A DNA stretch of 64,000 nt from Candidatus Latescibacterota bacterium (GTDB lineage: Bacteria; Latescibacterota; UBA2968), in NCBI GenBank assembly GCA_965205975.1, contig OZ242195.1:3136001-3200000 (forward strand), written 5' to 3'. Below the pieces are notes generated by a model, which did no database searches, had not been told where the DNA came from, and saw only the letters and a program-made list of their open reading frames with translations. The position numbers were made by a program, and so were the translations under genes. Below, in pieces: positions 26,394-56,527 of the stretch. Position 1 is the stretch's first letter; each line of letters opens with the position of its first letter.

Positions 26394-26508
26394 AAATAAA
26401 AAAAGCCCAATCCTCTAATGGATTGAGCCCAGGCGATCGACCCTTTGAATATTTGTTCTAACGCTCCCCTCCGGTCATTTCCGGATATTCGCCAGTTGCG
26501 TCAGATAC
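26394..26508 (-). ncRNA. ZMP/ZTP (pfl) riboswitch with terminator
   Basis: Minus strand gcaactggcgaa..ccgga..ccggaggggagcg..gatcgcctgggc, then hairpin and U-tract, upstream of purH. Confidence 0.88.
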
Positions 26509-26702
26509 TATTGGTAAAACCAATATAACGGGGAGCAACATATATGTCAACAGTCATCAACTCTGTCCTCTGTCAGCACCCGATACAATTTCCGTTTCAA
26601 TATGACGCAAACACTGATAGGTTTCAAGACGCTGGATCATGTGGGACTCCTGTATTAAGTTAGGAGCATATTACATGACAGAAAGAGAGGCGTCAAGAGC
26701 AA

Positions 26703-30110: not shown

Positions 30111-32312
30111 TTAAAAAAAAGACATCTTATAGTGCACTTTAATACTCCGCCCTATTTCGGGCATCACGGATCGAATGCGCGAGAGATGGTTGCGGTATTC
30201 CGTATCCAAAAGATTGTCCAAAGAGAGAATAATACTATGGCGGGTATGATTGGTGTTAATATCGCGTTGGGCATACACACCGAAAACAGCATAGCCATCC
30301 GTAGGATCTTCAAATATATCCACGCGCTCCTGTCCCGCGACAAATTCCGCAGTCCCGCCAACAGTAAAATAGGGATGATGATAGGTCGTACTGCCGACAA
30401 ACTTGAGCGGCGGAATCTCGGGCAGAGGCAAATGCTCATCCCGGTTCTCGCCACGCACATAACTGCCGTTTAATTCCAGATTCAAACGCGTATTTAAACG
30501 CCACCCCAGATGCATCTCCAGACCCAAAAATCGCGCGGCAACACCATCGGCAGCGTAAATCGGCAAAAGTTGGGCAAAATTGATCTCTCCGGTATTGCGC
30601 GGGGCAATATAGGTATCAAACTCGTTCCAATATCCGCTCAAAACAAAATCGACGCCCGGTTGCAAATAATGAAAAAAGACCTCGAAGCCCAGGCTCGTCT
30701 CGGCCTCGAGATCGACATTGCCCACCTCAAAAGTGTAAGCAGCCAGATGCGGCCCATCGTTATAAAGCTCTTCAATCGTGGGCACGCGCTGAGATCGGCT
30801 TAAGTTTAAACCGCCGGTTAGCCGGTCAGTAATAGTCACGAGCGGACTAATCGCCGCTGACCAGGCGTGAAAGGTGCGATCTACATCGAGATCTGCAATG
30901 CTCTTTGTTCTTGGGCGCGGATCAAAGTCGGCATACGTATAACGCGCAGAAGCCTGAAATTCGATGTCGCGATAGGTGCATTCGTGGTAGAGACCTAAGG
31001 AAGCATTTAGCTCTCGCGTGGGCGGTGTAAAAACAAACGCGCCCAATTTGAGGTTATGATGGCCAAAGCCCAGAGCGAGAACGGTATTTCGCATCTGGCC
31101 CTGTGTGTTCATAAGCAATTTGAGATCACCGCGGTAGTCGTGGAACAAAAACTCAGACCCAATATTGCCGCTGGACTCGTACTCAAAGTGGTGATAGAAG
31201 GTCCTGGTAAAATCCATCTCCACACTACTGAACACCTGGCGATCAAAATGAAAGGCCGCCTTGCCATCAAACACGCGGCGATCAATATCCAGATCTACGC
31301 CATTGGGATGTCCGCCAATAAATCCGCCGGGAATGCCGTATTGGGTATCGAACTGATCAAAAGAAGCACCGATATATCCCCGATCAGTGGGATATGACAG
31401 ACCGAGCGTATGCGTGCGCGTATCAATAGGTGTATTGGCAAGTCTGCCAATGGGGGTTTGCACATCCCGGGTATTGCGGTACGTCGTCTCGGCATACAGC
31501 GCGAGCGGACCCACGGGCACTGTGATTCCAGCGGCTGAGAGATACCCTCGATTGACCGTCTCGCCATAAGCACCAACACTGCCAAAAACGCGCTGCGGAT
31601 GGTCTTCGGGTATCTTCTGTTTTACAACATTGATAACCCCGCCAATGGCCGATGCCGTGTGAAGCAACGTGCGCGGACCCCGAATAATTTCGAGACGCTC
31701 GGAATTAAAAGGCTCAAGCGTAACAGCGTGATCGGCAGAAGTAGCGGATAAATCCCGAGTCTCGATACCATCTATATTGATCTGTACGCGGTCACCACTC
31801 AGGCCGCGTATAACCGGGCGAGCGGGTGCAGGCCCCATGCTGCGGATAGCGACGCCGATTTCGTTTTTCATCGTCTCGGCAAGCGTGAGACTATACTTCT
31901 TCTGAAGTTCATCCCCCGAAAGCACGCCAGTCGCTTCGTACAATTCTTCAAAACGGGTTTCGACATTTTTGGCGACCACATCAATGGTATCCAAAAGAAT
32001 TTCCTGAGCGACCATTTCCACGTACAGCATGGAAAGCTTCGCGCTTGAGACCCCGACTTCCCGATGCGCTGTCCCATAGCCGATACGGTAAAAAGACAGG
32101 CGATGAACGCCCTCCGACAGACGCAAGACAAAACGGCCCCGTTCATCGGTTATTGTACCCACTGCGCCATCATCGAGTTTGATATCGACATTGCCCATTG
32201 CGCGTTGGGTCTTGTGATCAAAAACATATCCCTCGAGCAAACGCGTCTCTTGCGATGCGCTGATCGCGAAAAAAAAGAACACAACAATAAAAAAAGAAGC
32301 CGTGAATCTCAA
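30111..32312 (-). CDS. TonB-dependent receptor (ZnuD-like), copy 1
   Basis: N-terminal carboxypeptidase-like domain, RPVIRGL, DHAV plug, EIIRGP, NDGPHLA, C-terminal Phe. Confidence 0.9.
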   Translation of the reverse strand: MRFTASFFIVVFFFFAISASQETRLLEGYVFDHKTQRAMGNVDIKLDDGAVGTITDERGRFVLRLSEGVHRLSFYRIGYGTAHREVGVSSAKLSMLYVEMVAQEILLDTIDVVAKNVETRFEELYEATGVLSGDELQKKYSLTLAETMKNEIGVAIRSMGPAPARPVIRGLSGDRVQINIDGIETRDLSATSADHAVTLEPFNSERLEIIRGPRTLLHTASAIGGVINVVKQKIPEDHPQRVFGSVGAYGETVNRGYLSAAGITVPVGPLALYAETTYRNTRDVQTPIGRLANTPIDTRTHTLGLSYPTDRGYIGASFDQFDTQYGIPGGFIGGHPNGVDLDIDRRVFDGKAAFHFDRQVFSSVEMDFTRTFYHHFEYESSGNIGSEFLFHDYRGDLKLLMNTQGQMRNTVLALGFGHHNLKLGAFVFTPPTRELNASLGLYHECTYRDIEFQASARYTYADFDPRPRTKSIADLDVDRTFHAWSAAISPLVTITDRLTGGLNLSRSQRVPTIEELYNDGPHLAAYTFEVGNVDLEAETSLGFEVFFHYLQPGVDFVLSGYWNEFDTYIAPRNTGEINFAQLLPIYAADGVAARFLGLEMHLGWRLNTRLNLELNGSYVRGENRDEHLPLPEIPPLKFVGSTTYHHPYFTVGGTAEFVAGQERVDIFEDPTDGYAVFGVYAQRDINTNHTRHSIILSLDNLLDTEYRNHLSRIRSVMPEIGRSIKVHYKMSFF

Positions 32313-32377
32313 AACGAATCTCCAACAGAGAAAAAGCCCTCACTCTATCCTGAGAAAACCGAGTGAGGGCAAGGGAA

Positions 32378-32869
32378 CTACTGATCTACGACACGCACGG
32401 GAATGGGAATCGTGCGAAAATCTACATGATCGTCATGGGTGACCTGGAGCTCAATCGTAGTTTCGCCTACCTTGAGGCCGCGCAGTTGGAATTCAAACTT
32501 TCCTACATCTGCAGGCTCCTGATGAACTTCCACAACTGTGTTATCGGCAATCGCCCATGTAAAGCTGTCATCTGGATCATCTGGCGGGTCAATTTCGTCG
32601 CCATCGTGGTCCAGGAACATAATACTCCATTTAGCAGTAAGTCCACCATTGGGAACTTCGAGATGACCTGCCCGACCACCGCTGGCATCGATCGCCCCTT
32701 CAAAATAGCGGAAGAATCGATTGCCCGAATCTATGATAACCAGACCCTCAGGTTCGAAATGCTCTTCGTGTTCAGACATGGGATCATCACTACCACAACC
32801 AATCACAAACAGAGTCAGAACTGCCACAGCGGCAAAAGTGCGTTGAAGCGATTTTCTTCTAAAAAACAT
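32378..32869 (-). CDS. His/acid-rich lipoprotein, copy 1
   Basis: Lipobox VIGC; EHEEH and HDDHVDF. Confidence 0.8.
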   Translation of the reverse strand: MFFRRKSLQRTFAAVAVLTLFVIGCGSDDPMSEHEEHFEPEGLVIIDSGNRFFRYFEGAIDASGGRAGHLEVPNGGLTAKWSIMFLDHDGDEIDPPDDPDDSFTWAIADNTVVEVHQEPADVGKFEFQLRGLKVGETTIELQVTHDDHVDFRTIPIPVRVVDQ

Positions 32870-32993
32870 GATAGTCTCCTGAATGGTAAAACCTGTACAG
32901 GGCACACGGGCTCACAGAGAGAGACCCTCTTATTCAGGCCCGCACAAAAAGGCACAAAAATAAAGCAACCTTCAGTATTAAGATATTCAGTAT

Positions 32994-33272
32994 TCAGGAG
33001 ACTACTGGAGGGGATCGGCCCTGCGGCAAAAGAAAAAACTGGTGGGATAAAAATGTGGCGTTCGACAGAAGATAAAACCAACAGACATATAACGCGCGAA
33101 AAATAACTATGGCACTGATAAGACCACAAAAGCTGTAAACCCAATGGCAAACAAGACAATGGATATCATGCTCTACATGGTCAAATGCATGCCCAAAGGC
33201 AAGGGCAAATGCGCCGATGAACAACACGACGACCAGTGTTTTAACGAATGGATATTTGGTGTGTAGATTCAT
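32994..33272 (-). CDS. DUF2946/CruR-like leader protein (His, CxxC, RSPP), copy 1
   Basis: Hydrophobic N-terminus, HAFDHVEHDIHCLVCH, C-terminal GRSPPVVS; upstream of a TonB-receptor operon. Confidence 0.75.
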   Translation of the reverse strand: MNLHTKYPFVKTLVVVLFIGAFALAFGHAFDHVEHDIHCLVCHWVYSFCGLISAIVIFRALYVCWFYLLSNATFLSHQFFLLPQGRSPPVVS

Positions 33273-33319
33273 CTCAATAGTGTGTCTTTAACAATCAAAC
33301 CCGGCCCTGGTTCCCAATA

Positions 33320-33349
33320 AATATGCAATACATCATATCTTATTGCAAG
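33320..33349 (-). promoter_or_regulatory. Promoter overlapped by an inverted repeat
   Basis: TTGCAA-17-CATATT with TGCAATA-N10-TATTGCA. Confidence 0.55.
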
Positions 33350-33397
33350 TCTTGAGTGATTTGCGGTTTCCAAAGACTCCTGATATTCAATAGATAC

Positions 33398-33799
33398 TTA
33401 CCAGATTGTTGCCACTTGTGATTGCTGAATTTTTTCATCTTTACTGATCAGCGGCAATTCCATATACAGCGCAGTACCCGCAATGATGCGGTCAGGCATA
33501 TCAGGCACTATTGTTCGGGGTATCTCAGCTATTTTGTGAACAATATCCTGGGTTAGATCTACCAAAACCAAATTGCTGTCACCTGTTTTTAGATTATCGT
33601 GAAGCAGTTGCTGATTTTCAAGTGGAATACGACCTTTCTCTTGTAAATAAAGAATTTCAACCAAACAGATCGTGGGTATGTAAATGAAAGCGTCGTCTTG
33701 TTCACAGGCATCAAAAATTTGGCTGGCCTTAGCTCCTAGAAGAACGCTACCCTCCAAATACCAGATCAAACCATGTGTATCAGTGACTGCACGAGTCAT
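33398..33799 (-). CDS. VapC/PIN toxin
   Basis: VTDTHGLIW, ICLVEI, DMPDRIIAGTA, LISKD. Confidence 0.88.
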   Translation of the reverse strand: MTRAVTDTHGLIWYLEGSVLLGAKASQIFDACEQDDAFIYIPTICLVEILYLQEKGRIPLENQQLLHDNLKTGDSNLVLVDLTQDIVHKIAEIPRTIVPDMPDRIIAGTALYMELPLISKDEKIQQSQVATIW

Positions 33800-36940: not shown

Positions 36941-37066
36941 GATATAGTCTCCTGAATAAGCCCGCACGGGCAGAGAACACGCAGAGGGGTCCCCTCTTAT
37001 GCCCGCACAAAAAGGCACAAAAATACAGAAAAATAATGCAAACTTTAGTATGGAGATATTCAGTAT

Positions 37067-37363
37067 TCAGAAGACTACTGGAGGGGCTCGGCTCTGAGGT
37101 GAAAGGAAAAACTGGTGGGATAAAAATGTGGGGTGCGGCAGAGTGAAAAAACAACAGGCGTATAATGCACCAAAAACGACTATGGCACTGATAAGACCAC
37201 TAAAGCTATAAACCCAATGGCAAACGAAGCAATGGGTGTCATGTTGACCATGGTCACCATGGTCACCATGGTCAACCGCATGCCCAAAGGCAAGGGCAAA
37301 CGCGCCGACGAGCAATATGACGATCAGCGTTTTAACGAGCGGGTGTCTGGTGTAGAAATTCAT
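37067..37363 (-). CDS. DUF2946/CruR-like leader protein (His, CxxC, RAPP), copy 2
   Basis: HAVDHGDHGDHGQHDTHCFVCH; C-terminal SRAPPVVF. Confidence 0.78.
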   Translation of the reverse strand: MNFYTRHPLVKTLIVILLVGAFALAFGHAVDHGDHGDHGQHDTHCFVCHWVYSFSGLISAIVVFGALYACCFFTLPHPTFLSHQFFLSPQSRAPPVVF

Positions 37364-42099: not shown

Positions 42100-42488
42100 A
42101 CCGCATTGCCACACGCATCACAGGTTCCGAGCAATACCACCTCATGTCCCGTCATCTGAAACCCGTCTGGAACCAGGGAATCGAGGCCCTCGACGCAACC
42201 GAAGAGGTCAAACGCATGGTCGCAGGTCGAACAAAGAAAGTGATGGTGATGCTCGCGGTCCTTGGGCTCGTACCGAACGCCGCGGCCCAACACCTCAACT
42301 GCCTCCAGCGTGCCTTCCTCAACACCCCGTTGGAGCGCGCGATATACCGTGGCGAGACCGATACGCTCTCCCCTTCCGCTCAGGCGACTCCACAATTCCC
42401 TGGCGGATAGGGGGCCGTCCGCTTCGCCAAGGGCTCGCAAGACGGTCAGCTGCTGTTTCGCTCTCTGCTGTTGATTAGCTCTTTGCAT
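42096..42488 (-). CDS. Fur-family regulator, probable Zur
   Basis: [20 protein letters not shown]-terminal CDAC; heads the metal operon. Confidence 0.88.
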
Positions 42489-42494
42489 GAAGAA

Positions 42495-42523
42495 ATGATA
42501 ATCAATTCTCACATTATTGTCAA
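42495..42523 (-). promoter_or_regulatory. Leaderless sigma70 promoter with a Fur/Zur-like box
   Basis: TTGACA-17-TATCAT, then 6 nt to ATG; TGAGAATTGATTATCA palindrome over the -10. Confidence 0.75.
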
Positions 42524-45742: not shown

Positions 45743-45900
45743 GTCAACCACCCACGGTTAAAGCCTGTGGGCTTGTCCCTGCCGCGTCACATCCCCGGGC
45801 AGTTGCCCACCATTGGGGCACGGCGAGACTTTAGGCTTGTTGACACAAAGCCCTTGCTCGGATGTTCCGAGCAGCGTTGCGGTCGGCGTGGTCTTGATGG
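45743..45900 (-). ncRNA. Predicted TnpB omegaRNA/reRNA scaffold (5' boundary approximate)
   Basis: Hairpin-rich stretch between the tnpB 3' end and the right end, the established omegaRNA location. Confidence 0.6.
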
Positions 45901-46922
45901 CCACACGCTTTGCAAAGGAAGGATGTTTGGTCTTGTCTATTGGCTTTCTCACAGTGTCCACACTCGGCACACGTTTGGCTGGTGTATTTCGGATCCACAG
46001 GGATCACGGAAATGCCAGCACGTCTTGCTTTGTATTCAACGAATGTGCGAAGCTGGAAGAAAGACCACCCAGACATTTTAGCACGCTGAGGCTTGCGAAA
46101 CCGTTTCTGGCTCTTGCGGATGCCTTCGAGGTCTTCAAGAGCAATCGCTTTGCCAGTGTCTTTAGCCTTCTCAACCATGCGTTTGGAGATGATGTGGTTG
46201 GTATTTCTACGAAACCTGCTCTCTCTGCCGGAGAGTAGGGAGAGTTTTCTGCGAACATTCTTGGGTCTCTTGCCTTGCTTGACAAGGGCAGACGCTTTCT
46301 GCTGGAGCGACTTTTTCAGATCGTGCATCTTCTGTCGGACATTTTCAACCGTGTCGCCAGAAAATGTTTCACCATCGTCTGTAACAGCAAGGTTGGTGGT
46401 GCCGAGATCAACGCCAATGAAGTCTGTCGTCAGTATCGGCGTGCCGTCGGGTACATCGACAGAGACAAGCAGAAACCACTTGCCGTCTTTGCGGAGCACA
46501 AGGTCTGCCTGTCCTTTGGCATAGCCAAACTGCTCACGCTGATAGTTGCCCATCAACATTGGCACAAGAACACGCCCTTCAAGCGTCAGCAAAGAAACAC
46601 GGTCTATGCCCTTGAAACTATACAGGCGTTGATCATACGGTATGCTTGCATGCTTACGGAACGATGGTTGCACTGACTTATCGCGCTTATACGCCTCTAC
46701 AACTTGAGCAATACAGCGAATAGCCATTTGTGCAGAGAGACCAAACAAGCGGCGTAAGTCTGAGTAGCATAGCTTTTGTAGTGCAAACTTATTCGCCAGC
46801 TTGCGCTCATAAGCCTTCAGAGCAAGCCAATTGGCGGCTTCGTTGAACCGCTCAATAGTGGCTTTTAGCTTCTGTGCTGTAGCAACATCTGGCAACAGTT
46901 GTATTTGAAGTGTCAGTTTCAT
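45831..46922 (-). CDS. tnpB: RNA-guided nuclease TnpB
   Basis: RuvC GVDLG, ALEDL, HADRNAARNI; zinc finger CAEC..CKAC; YTSQ. Confidence 0.95.
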   Translation of the reverse strand: MKLTLQIQLLPDVATAQKLKATIERFNEAANWLALKAYERKLANKFALQKLCYSDLRRLFGLSAQMAIRCIAQVVEAYKRDKSVQPSFRKHASIPYDQRLYSFKGIDRVSLLTLEGRVLVPMLMGNYQREQFGYAKGQADLVLRKDGKWFLLVSVDVPDGTPILTTDFIGVDLGTTNLAVTDDGETFSGDTVENVRQKMHDLKKSLQQKASALVKQGKRPKNVRRKLSLLSGRESRFRRNTNHIISKRMVEKAKDTGKAIALEDLEGIRKSQKRFRKPQRAKMSGWSFFQLRTFVEYKARRAGISVIPVDPKYTSQTCAECGHCEKANRQDQTSFLCKACGHQDHADRNAARNIRARALCQQA

Positions 46923-47037
46923 ATTGAGAAATATAGTCAATAAGGATGAGGCCTTCAAGGGGCAAATTGCTAAAGCACACCAAAACCGTAAGCCCTCCGC
47001 CATGCGACCCAACGCTAAAGCTCTCTGCGAGTGGGCT

Positions 47038-47277
47038 TCACGGGCTATTGGGTGAAGAAGGCTCAGAAGGAATCTCTTCGCCATTCTCCAGCAGATACGC
47101 AACAAGAAGATCAACAGCGTTTTCTAAATTCTCTAACGCCTCTTTCTCGGTATATCCCCAACTCGCAGCCCCTCTATGTTCCAACGCGGGAATATAAGCT
47201 CTCCAGACCGCTTTCCCATCCGGCTCATCGGGCCACTTGTCTTTCTCCAAGACAGCCTTAAATAAATATGTTTTCAT
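47038..47277 (-). CDS. hicB: HicB-family antitoxin, 3' end replaced by the IS left end
   Basis: WRAYIPAL..GAASWG.T.KEAL.N...A..L......GEEIP. Confidence 0.8.
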   Translation of the reverse strand: MKTYLFKAVLEKDKWPDEPDGKAVWRAYIPALEHRGAASWGYTEKEALENLENAVDLLVAYLLENGEEIPSEPSSPNSP

Positions 47278-56272: not shown

Positions 56273-56356
56273 TAGCTAAACGCGACAAAACCATATACAA
56301 AGCGCACGCATTATCTCACCTTTTTCCCAATCCACGAGGAAATCAATAAGGTCTTA

Positions 56357-56503
56357 GATTCAGGCAGGTCTTCTGGCTTCTGGGTCTCGTGCTTCTCGCG
56401 CCTTCCCGGTTTTTACCAGTGACGTAATGTGAGAAACATCCCCAGTTACAGCGGCGGGACCGCAACGGAATTTCACCGTTTTCCCTATACTGCAACCTGA
56501 ATT
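56357..56503 (-). ncRNA. Cobalamin riboswitch
   Basis: agggaaaacggtgaaattccg..gcggtcccgccgctgta..cactgg..gggaagg..agccagaagacctgcc (B12 box). Confidence 0.95.
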
Positions 56504-56527
56504 CGAGAGTACAAATTTAATTTTTTA

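Follow-up and report, generated by a model that had tools for sequence, protein, structure and literature searches.

A candidate zinc-linked arrest leader of the CruR/CutF type whose end pairs with a downstream Shine-Dalgarno sequence in Latescibacterota

The 64,000-nucleotide stretch analyzed here, referred to as the window (contig OZ242195.1 of assembly GCA_965205975.1, from a Candidatus Latescibacterota bacterium), carries twice in tandem, and on the same strand, a short leader open reading frame (ORF) followed by a lipoprotein gene and a TonB-dependent receptor gene, an order that is repeated in relatives. The end of the leader is complementary to the Shine-Dalgarno (SD) region of the lipoprotein gene, and the resulting messenger RNA (mRNA) helix is a real, conserved feature of lipoprotein-type junctions. 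On the sequence evidence we lean, by no great distance, toward the reading that the leader is a metal-sensing arrest peptide of the CruR/CutF type which controls translation of the lipoprotein and of a ZnuD-like receptor by masking the SD. The leader is a new, probably zinc-linked relative of the copper-sensing leaders CruR and CutF, and not a new kind of switch.

Leader peptides and their conservation

The leader ORF of copy 1 (33272-32994; this and all other leader, helix, and island features lie on the minus strand) encodes 92 amino acids (aa) from an ATG start. Its product consists of MNLHTKYPFVK, a hydrophobic stretch, GHAFDHVEHDIHCLVCHW, a second hydrophobic stretch, FLSHQFFLLPQGRSPPVVS, and the stop. 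The N-terminus is thus made up of a Lys-containing n-region and the hydrophobic stretch T12-F26 (with ..ALAFG-H), and is followed by a His/Cys segment, a second hydrophobic segment (W44-L68), and the ending GRSPPVVS-stop. Five His and one CxxC fall within GHAFDHVEHDIHCLVCHW, and this part (H28...H38-C39-L-V-C42-H43; 33144-33191) is the presumed metal-binding segment of the nascent chain. The hydrophobic N-terminus, His cluster (H28...H43), and CxxC (C39-C42) named in a preliminary description of this DNA are all present in the translated ORF. The RSPP motif that it placed at the C-terminus is also present (CGA TCC CCT CCA, 33017-33006), but is trailed by three codons (GTA GTC TCC) and the TGA stop (32996-32994), and therefore lies near the C-terminus and not at it. 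Arrest is presumed to occur at RSPP, CCT occupying the P-site and CCA the A-site by analogy with the CruR toeprint (PMC12992588). Copy 2 (37363-37067) encodes 98 aa, is 70% identical to copy 1, and ends SRAPPVVF-stop, with its RAPP codons at 37079-37090. Both window leaders lack an SD, and their starts sit in A+U-rich sequence.

The close set comprises 25 leader loci, these being the two window copies (W1 and W2 for copies 1 and 2) and 23 related loci (given L-numbers), which come from metagenome-assembled genomes of Latescibacterota and share 61-86% identity within the genus (tblastn best segment). In their alignment the whole leader peptide is well conserved, both hydrophobic segments included. 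Invariant in 25/25 are both cysteines of the CxxC, the 43-residue spacer from CxxC to the arrest-motif Arg, the Arg itself (CGA in 19 loci, CGT in 6), and both prolines, of which the first is encoded by CCT in 22 loci and CCC in 3, and the second by CCA in 22, CCG in 1, and CCC in 2. These synonymous changes in the Arg and Pro codons point to selection on the peptide, and not on the RNA alone. The motif reads RSPP in 24/25 loci and RAPP in 1/25, and the tail after PP is three residues long in 23/25 and two in the remaining two. That RSPP is an arrest-type motif, as first proposed, agrees with its documentation as an arrest-competent variant: the Ala to Ser exchange is partially permissive in ApdA and ApdP, and random arrest screens yielded RSPP, a motif that proteomes strongly avoid (PMC12992588).

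A profile search over 1.84 billion representatives returned 21 proteins at E<=1e-3, which together with the two window copies constitute a wider set of 23 sequences. Both CxxC cysteines are kept in 23/23 of these and R[SA]PP stands 2-7 residues from the end in 22/23, the distant members being only 24-33% identical. Leader matches were obtained in 69 of the 168 genomes of the phylum, including 20/20 other genomes of the window's genus, while a metagenome scan added only two further loci, one of them truncated. In four loci from other genera of the phylum (L055, L063, L069, and L081) two same-strand leader-type ORFs are arranged in tandem, each with CxxC...R[SA]PP. At L068, a fragment like the N-terminus of a distant profile-search relative (P0025) lies between a GRAPPVC leader and the lipoprotein gene.

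A long-range helix over the Shine-Dalgarno sequence

The 5' arm of the helix in copy 1 (TAGTCTCCTGAAT, UAGUCUCCUGAAU; 33004-32992), referred to below as the anti-SD, covers the last two and a half codons of the leader, the TGA stop, and 2 nucleotides (nt) beyond it. The 3' arm (ATTCAGGAGACTA, AUUCAGGAGACUA; 32884-32872) holds the SD core AGGAG (32880-32876), which is located 8 nt 5' of the lipoprotein ATG (32869). The perfect 13-nt complementarity reported in the preliminary description was verified in the sequence and by a repeat search, in which the arms are exact reverse complements (100%) separated by 107 nt. Dinucleotide shuffling of the region 33030-32860 (171 nt) gave perfect inverted repeats of at most 11 nt, and 0/1000 shuffles reached 13. 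Folding of the same region, which had been suggested as a check, gave a minimum free energy (MFE) structure and a centroid that both contain the helix (-49.6 kcal/mol, z -2.14, with 3/200 shuffles folding as well). In copy 2 the SD arm (AUUCAGGAGACUA; 36957-36945), ahead of lipoprotein 2, is unchanged, and the anti-SD arm (37077-37065) carries one C>U that gives a G.U pair; the predicted fold is the same, with the helix in MFE and centroid (z -1.99).

The loop enclosed by the helix in copy 1 (32885-32991, 107 nt) contains nested G+C-rich hairpins that are variable or absent in divergent relatives. AGGAG is credible as an SD because the 3' end of the genome's 16S ribosomal RNA (...GGAUCACCUCCUUUCU) carries CCUCCU and an SD-like motif is present at ~21 of the window's 49 rough gene calls. 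No Rfam family was detected in the leader-lipoprotein region, where the two matches at E<=1 reach only 18-22 bits (gathering scores 44-49), and a scan of 32300-33500 gave 0 promoter-like and 0 terminator-like sites.

Conservation of the helix

A lipoprotein gene lies downstream of the leader in 23 of the 25 close loci, and at 22 of these 23 junctions the duplex between leader end and SD is kept at -14.6 to -24.3 kcal/mol; the remaining junction, L020, reaches -8.6. Eleven core pairs are standard in 97.6% of 253 cells across the 23 loci, compared with 31-51% after a shift of the 3' partner by 1-3 columns. Six cells are unpaired, and the metagenome locus L027 has one further A-C mismatch in the helix. 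At L013, L014, L021, and L026 the spacers are unalignable and the pairing is kept, L021 and L026 extending it with different sequences. Beyond the window's genus, L055 (another genus, with a PVS tail) has an A-U pair swapped for U-A, and the leader ends of L061 and L062 (a third genus), though very different in sequence, each pair with the SD region of the same locus. Thus the helix recurs in several genera; it is not universal to the leader family.

Across 13 junctions, the cognate duplexes average -17.55 kcal/mol and permuted combinations -12.87 +/- 0.86, with 0/20000 permutations as low. Because a G+C content shared by neighboring segments may inflate this cross-locus test, a within-locus control was added for 14 junctions, in which each leader end was compared with 102-134 other 28-nt windows of its own locus. 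The helix is supported in six of these, where the controls at least as strong as the SD window number 0/107 at W1, 0/107 at W2, 2/112 at L062, 4/104 at L026, 5/110 at L055, and 6/113 at L061. Support is weak in two (14/109 at L014 and 23/118 at L056), and the other six are not supported.

Two leaders from another family of the same class, L072 and L074, end ARAPPRR and ARAPPCR, respectively, and precede a gene for an exported protein (..ATGLSRAFNPAIS..). Here GUUCUCC right after the stop codon complements the SD of the exported-protein gene (AGGAGGAC and AGGAGAAC, respectively). This anti-SD lies outside the footprint of a PP-stalled ribosome; a stall might here keep the SD closed until the ribosome is released, which would invert the sign of the response. 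For L072, the pairing did not stand out in the within-locus control (67/104 controls at least as strong).

The proposed switch and the evidence for and against it

In the mechanism that we infer, which extends to arrest, to the identity of the metal, to the direction of the response, and to the helix rather than Rho as output, a ribosome arrested at RSPP would occupy the first half or more of the 13-nt anti-SD. The SD of the lipoprotein and ZnuD-like receptor genes would thereby lose its strong partner, and the genes would be translated. Binding of metal to the His/CxxC segment, 43 residues upstream in the nascent chain, would release the arrest; the ribosome would then terminate three codons on, the long-range helix would close on the SD, and uptake would be shut off. 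The metal would most likely be Zn because of the ZigA, Fur-family, and ZnuD-like context set out below, and the switch would provide a fast translational check beneath the transcriptional control of the island.

The geometry was assessed with CCT (33011-33009) in the P-site, CCA in the A-site, and +1 as the first P-site nucleotide. In this frame the anti-SD begins 2 nt past the A-site codon and spans +8 to +20, and the partner of the SD core, CUCCU, spans +12 to +16. Constrained folding of the free RNA pairs the SD core with the leader arm at probabilities of 1.00 and 0.99 in copies 1 and 2, and the SD is unpaired at 0.00 in both. When the RNA is held single-stranded to +13, leader-arm pairing is predicted to fall to 0.60 and 0.11 (SD unpaired 0.14 and 0.19), and to +15 to 0.14 and 0.08 (SD unpaired 0.24 and 0.19); over the range +13 to +17 the values are 0.60, 0.14, and 0.27 for W1 and 0.07-0.11 for W2. 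The constrained fold costs 11 to 20 kcal/mol. Occupation of the leader arm leaves the SD mostly paired, since the place of the arm is filled by weaker, pyrimidine-rich partners from the spacer. These conserved spacer stretches lie at 32900-32950 (GGGUCUCUCUCUG) and 36965-37000 (CCCCUCUGCGUGUUCUCUG); they are the predicted substitute partners in the constrained folds, and may act as an additional, weaker anti-SD or belong to a three-state fold. Hence, in these models, a stalled ribosome plausibly swaps a very stable block for a weak one and does not leave a naked SD. The order of events during transcription should help, since the SD would be made after the ribosome had already parked on its partner. 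The earlier claim that a stalled ribosome covers the anti-SD agrees with the position of the 5' arm at +8 to +20 of the P-site; the predicted opening of the SD is only partial.

Several findings weigh against the proposed switch. The first concerns this opening: with the RNA single-stranded only to +11, leader-arm pairing stays at 1.00 and 0.92 in copies 1 and 2 (SD unpaired 0.00 and 0.02), and even at +13 to +17 the SD core is fully unpaired with a probability of only 0.14-0.24. The MFE structure of copy 2 loses the helix when 11 nt more of 5' context is included. Pairing in homologs, which the preliminary description had named as a check, is kept at nearly all lipoprotein junctions, as described above, but covariation is minimal and not significant, 46/500 shuffles reaching the observed score. 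The one compensatory cell is found in L026, where the stop change TGA>TAA is matched by ATTCAGG>ATTTAGG; four core pairs vary one-sidedly, all by wobble-compatible C>U or A>G changes, and the SD arm is nearly invariant across loci. In the within-locus control the SD window is unexceptional at L054, L057, L058, L060, L068, and L072. Two of the 25 close leaders, L012 and L018, are followed by an ABC ATPase gene that has neither an SD nor complementarity to the leader end (-3.0 kcal/mol), and the same peptide may therefore be coupled to another output. Membership of DUF2946 (PF11162) also falls short: copy 2 scores 23.3 bits (E 1.1e-4) over positions 47-117 of the 117-position Pfam profile, its C-terminal part, against a gathering score of 23.7, and copy 1 has no match at E<=0.01. 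At that E-value matches were obtained for 1/25 close and 5/23 wider relatives, the best again 23.3 bits, and a whole-genome scan gave 22.5 bits; since the gathering threshold is missed, the leader is called DUF2946-like and not a Pfam member. Finally, NCBIfam leaves the type of the island's Fur-family regulator undecided (PerR best at 44.6 bits, Zur 23.5, all far below their cut-offs), and a search for a shared Fur/Zur operator, using the 17-nt spacer of the fur-family promoter, matched only itself in the window at <=3 mismatches.

L012 and L018 belong to the window's genus and represent a third leader copy, ending PPVV-stop, directly before a MacB-type ABC ATPase gene; the window counterpart of this gene comes after ZigA and has no leader.

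A fuller version of the proposal can be put forward, speculatively and with the expectation that it is rather unlikely to hold in all its parts. It would be a natural Zn-sensing nascent-chain switch, in which folding of a His/CxxC knuckle releases the RSPP arrest, the helix closes on the SD, and ZnuD-type uptake is turned off within seconds, all beneath transcriptional control of the Zur type. The leader family might be wired to different genes across Latescibacterota, and the sign of the response might depend on how far the anti-SD lies from the arrest site, the anti-SD being covered by the stalled ribosome here and located just past the stop in L072 and L074, before the exported protein.

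Alternative explanations

The alternative that survives best, although we regard it as unlikely, is a CruR-type output, in which the stalled ribosome would mainly shield a Rho-utilization site in the terminal part of the leader and metal-driven release would lead to Rho termination in the 124-nt spacer, the helix being auxiliary (in RNA polymerase pausing or mRNA stability) or acting in parallel. CruR, the closest characterized leader before a TonB receptor, works by Rho (PMC9426467). A further point against the helix as output is base composition: C is abundant and G scarce over the final ~100 nt of the leader (C 0.26-0.33, G 0.15-0.18). As the genome also encodes Rho (116.9 bits), the route used by CruR could operate here. 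Leaders L012 and L018, lacking the helix, keep the full peptide, and the scan of 32300-33500 found no intrinsic terminator. Rho termination would, however, leave unexplained a 13-bp helix centered on the SD, kept at all but one of the lipoprotein junctions and re-invented in L055, L061, and L062; moreover, CruR needed an unstructured mRNA stretch (PMC9426467), whereas the stop region here is strongly structured.

The polarity of the response might also be that of CutF, with metal inducing or prolonging the stall and the receptor translated only when its substrate is present; under Zur derepression this would amount to induction by the substrate. Metal causes stalling of CutF, the member of the family in which an SD-shielding stem-loop has been proven (PMC9973294; bioRxiv 10.1101/2025.02.05.636593), and since CruR and CutF respond with opposite polarity (bioRxiv 10.1101/2025.02.05.636593), polarity is not fixed by sequence alone. 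Such a response nevertheless appears doubtful for uptake genes in a starvation-type island, and the RxPP motif, three-residue tail, and CxxC spacing fit CruR, which is metal-relieved, and not the CxxxC and PPP of CutF. Most improbable is a stable membrane protein of two helices, acting together with the receptor or lipoprotein (in a metal relay, for instance), the mRNA helix serving only to couple translation without programmed arrest: the conservation of the whole peptide would suit such a protein, including as it does two hydrophobic segments at 61-86% identity within the genus, and the mRNA helix would be opened briefly by every ribosome that arrives at the stop codon, but R[SA]PP is among the most avoided bacterial tetrapeptides unless used for arrest (PMC12992588), it stands at a fixed distance from CxxC and stop in 25/25 loci and persists at 24-33% identity, and CruR and CutF are unstable and undetectable as proteins (PMC9426467; PMC9973294).

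Genomic setting

The metal-sensing arrest leader favored here is found in what looks, from its gene content, like a zinc-acquisition island. In order on the minus strand this comprises genes for a Fur-family regulator, ZigA, an ABC ATPase, a MacB/FtsX-type permease, a DUF3299 protein, a MerC-like protein, and a His-rich lipoprotein, followed by unit 2, a PIN pair, unit 1, a chlorite-dismutase-like protein, and a CDF transporter. The zinc-metallochaperone GTPase ZigA (42114-40861) matches NCBIfam equivalog NF038288 at 625.5 bits over positions 1-390 of 390, above the equivalog cut-off of 600. In unit 1, lipoprotein 1 (32869-32378; 163 aa), presumed to be the first regulated gene, has a lipobox (..VIGC) and an EEHFEPEGL motif, and is followed by TonB-dependent receptor 1 (32312-30111; 733 aa), for which ZnuD is the closest named relative. 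In unit 2, lipoprotein 2 (36940-36452) and receptor 2 (36388-34187) share 79 and 90% identity, respectively, with their counterparts. Among 21 NCBIfam families the receptor scores best with ZnuD (NF038289), at 227.2 bits; this is below the cut-off of 950, and the receptor is thus referred to as ZnuD-like only. Its best solved relative is ZnuD (4rdr, E 3.2e-38; the next 2.9e-11). Searches of the ESM Atlas with the lipoprotein gave only unnamed lipoprotein clusters, commonest in Ignavibacteriota and Balneolota. The original assignment of a Zur-type island holds for the ZigA equivalog, the presence of a Fur-family regulator, and the ZnuD-like receptors, but sequence does not identify the regulator as Zur, and the window yielded no shared operator.

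The gene for the Fur-family regulator, at the head of the island, runs from 42512 or 42488 to 42099. Its longest ORF starts at GTG 42512, inside a promoter-like site (window 42486-42523, minus strand) consisting of TTGACA (42523-42518), a 17-nt spacer, and TATCAT (42500-42495), with an in-frame ATG (42488) 6 nt on. The gene may be leaderless, the consensus match being the sole basis for this suggestion. Between the two units, a PIN-domain gene (33829-33398; Pfam PIN E 7.5e-9) is overlapped by a small ORF upstream of it (34092-33796) that has no Pfam match; the two look like a toxin-antitoxin pair inserted between the units. In relatives both units are directly adjacent, as at L004 and L010, which are ~3.3 kb apart on one contig.

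The sequencing runs that contain the window stretch are mostly sponge metagenomes. A single RNA run (X20) yielded 11 contigs of relatives, the eight listed pieces mapping to receptor 1 and to the lipoprotein gene at its 5' end; its depth is zero over bins 32875-33400, covering spacer and leader, which is uninformative either way since contigs cannot show transcript ends.

In the whole window, Rfam detected only a cobalamin and a ZTP riboswitch, both away from the leader region. The ZMP/ZTP riboswitch (26420-26509, minus strand; 57.3 bits against a gathering score of 39) is directly 5' of an AICARFT/IMPCHase (purH-like) gene (26377-25202). The cobalamin riboswitch (56346-56515, minus strand; 111 bits) is ahead of a B12-type uptake cluster containing genes for a periplasmic binding protein (56300-55116), a TonB receptor (55109-52917), and CbiZ (51062-49905), and further on FecCD and ABC ATPase genes (44569-43493, 45645-44722). 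A TnpB/Cas12f-like IS605 OrfB gene (45834-47114, minus strand; Cas12f1-like_TNB E 5.1e-24) lies between the zinc island and the B12 cluster.

Novelty and significance

The preliminary description regarded a His-rich version in a Zur-type island, acting by SD sequestration, as undescribed to its author's knowledge, which overstates the novelty. Stall-dependent melting of an SD-shielding stem-loop has been published for CutF, together with discussion of His/Cys and His-only clusters and of metals other than copper (PMC9973294; bioRxiv 10.1101/2025.02.05.636593), and upstream ORFs (uORFs) with RAPP or RGPP before TonB receptors have been reported as general in Gram-negative bacteria (PMC12992588). 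Every component of the mechanism as first proposed has been published before. The new aspects are the zinc context, the occurrence in Latescibacterota, the RSPP form, and the long-range helix. In the literature searched, no arrest-leader member with a zinc context was found, the word "zinc" being absent from the main texts of PMC9973294 and PMC12992588, and no member from Latescibacterota ("latescibacter" is absent from PMC9973294), although in both cases supplementary tables may list related sequences; nor did that literature yield a long-range helix with the leader's own stop region as its 5' arm.

The main interest of the leader is as a candidate for zinc sensing by a nascent chain. If the proposed reading is true, metal sensing by nascent arrest peptides, known for copper (CruR, CutF), would reach zinc uptake as well as a phylum that is uncultured and associated with sponges, and a CruR-type sensor (CxxC-43-RxPP) could be coupled to a CutF-type output (SD unmasking). 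The long-range helix would further imply SD control across a 124-nt spacer; stall-driven unfolding was expected by the CutF authors only for short intergenic regions and thought unlikely for long ones (PMC9973294). Given that the general principle is already published, the gain would be one of breadth and not of a new mechanism.

Comparison with known systems

The closest known system is CruR (Bp2923) of Bordetella pertussis, a DUF2946 (PF11162) protein with CXXC, RAPP three residues from its end, and 45 intervening residues +/- 1-2 (PMC9426467), whose arrest has been shown in vitro with two Pro codons in the P and A sites (PMC12992588). Like the window leader it is a small uORF product with a hydrophobic N-terminus, CxxC, and R-x-P-P three residues before the stop, and it heads a TonB-receptor operon. 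The CxxC-to-R spacing, fixed at 45 in CruR, is 43 here and so within one or two residues. CruR-type leaders also carry an N-terminal Sec signal peptide, to which the Lys-containing n-region and the stretch T12-F26 of copy 1 might correspond. The likeness to CruR and DUF2946 noted at the outset is thus upheld in architecture (CxxC, fixed spacer, R[SA]PP, and three-codon tail), with DUF2946 itself sub-threshold. By analogy, the expected logic would also be shared, metal relieving arrest and turning uptake off. CruR differs in that it has been shown to sense copper and acts through Rho-dependent termination in an unstructured region. The window leader has instead a 13-bp helix with the SD of the next gene, a zinc-type context, RSPP (24/25), an intervening lipoprotein gene, and an added His cluster; it comes from Latescibacterota and has a sub-threshold Pfam score.

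CutF of Rhodobacter capsulatus, also a DUF2946 protein, shares with the window leader an mRNA helix pairing the SD of the next gene, here 13 bp over AGGAG. Stalling of CutF melts its SD-shielding stem-loop, and mutation of the anti-SD makes CutF dispensable (PMC9973294; bioRxiv 10.1101/2025.02.05.636593). CutF has CxxxC and PPP, is EF-P- and signal-peptide-dependent, and is induced to stall by copper, and its target is a detoxifying multicopper oxidase, whereas the motifs here are CxxC and R[SA]PP. In addition, the CutF stem-loop is a local intergenic hairpin, while in the window the anti-SD includes the final codons and the stop of the leader, and a 107-nt loop separates it from its partner. 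The same group has catalogued 5,334 CutF-like proteins with Cys, His, and mixed metal sites, TonB-type neighbors, and differing modes of action, among which His-only clusters next to HupE/UreJ suggest Ni or Co. The nearest items to a zinc-context member are CzcI, which has no proline motif (PMC9973294), and the DUF2946 genes listed in a Caulobacter Zur data set (PMC4176598).

ApdA, ApdP, and SecM are small exported or membrane proteins that share with the window leader an R-[AGS]-P-P arrest core close to the C-terminus, and the SecM-secA paradigm also shares the principle that arrest exposes the initiation region of a downstream gene (PMC10951233, PMC10987492, PMC7897499). They differ in monitoring Sec/YidC activity and in being released by translocation force, where the window leader is presumed to be released by metal binding. 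For that step the only precedent found for zinc sensing by a nascent chain is engineered. In ADR1a zinc-finger/SecM constructs the effect peaks 24-26 residues from the arrest Pro, as compared with ~47 residues to the CxxC here, and Zn-dependent folding of the nascent Cys2His2 segment abolishes the C-terminal arrest (PMC4571824), indicating that metal binding by a nascent chain can release a stall.

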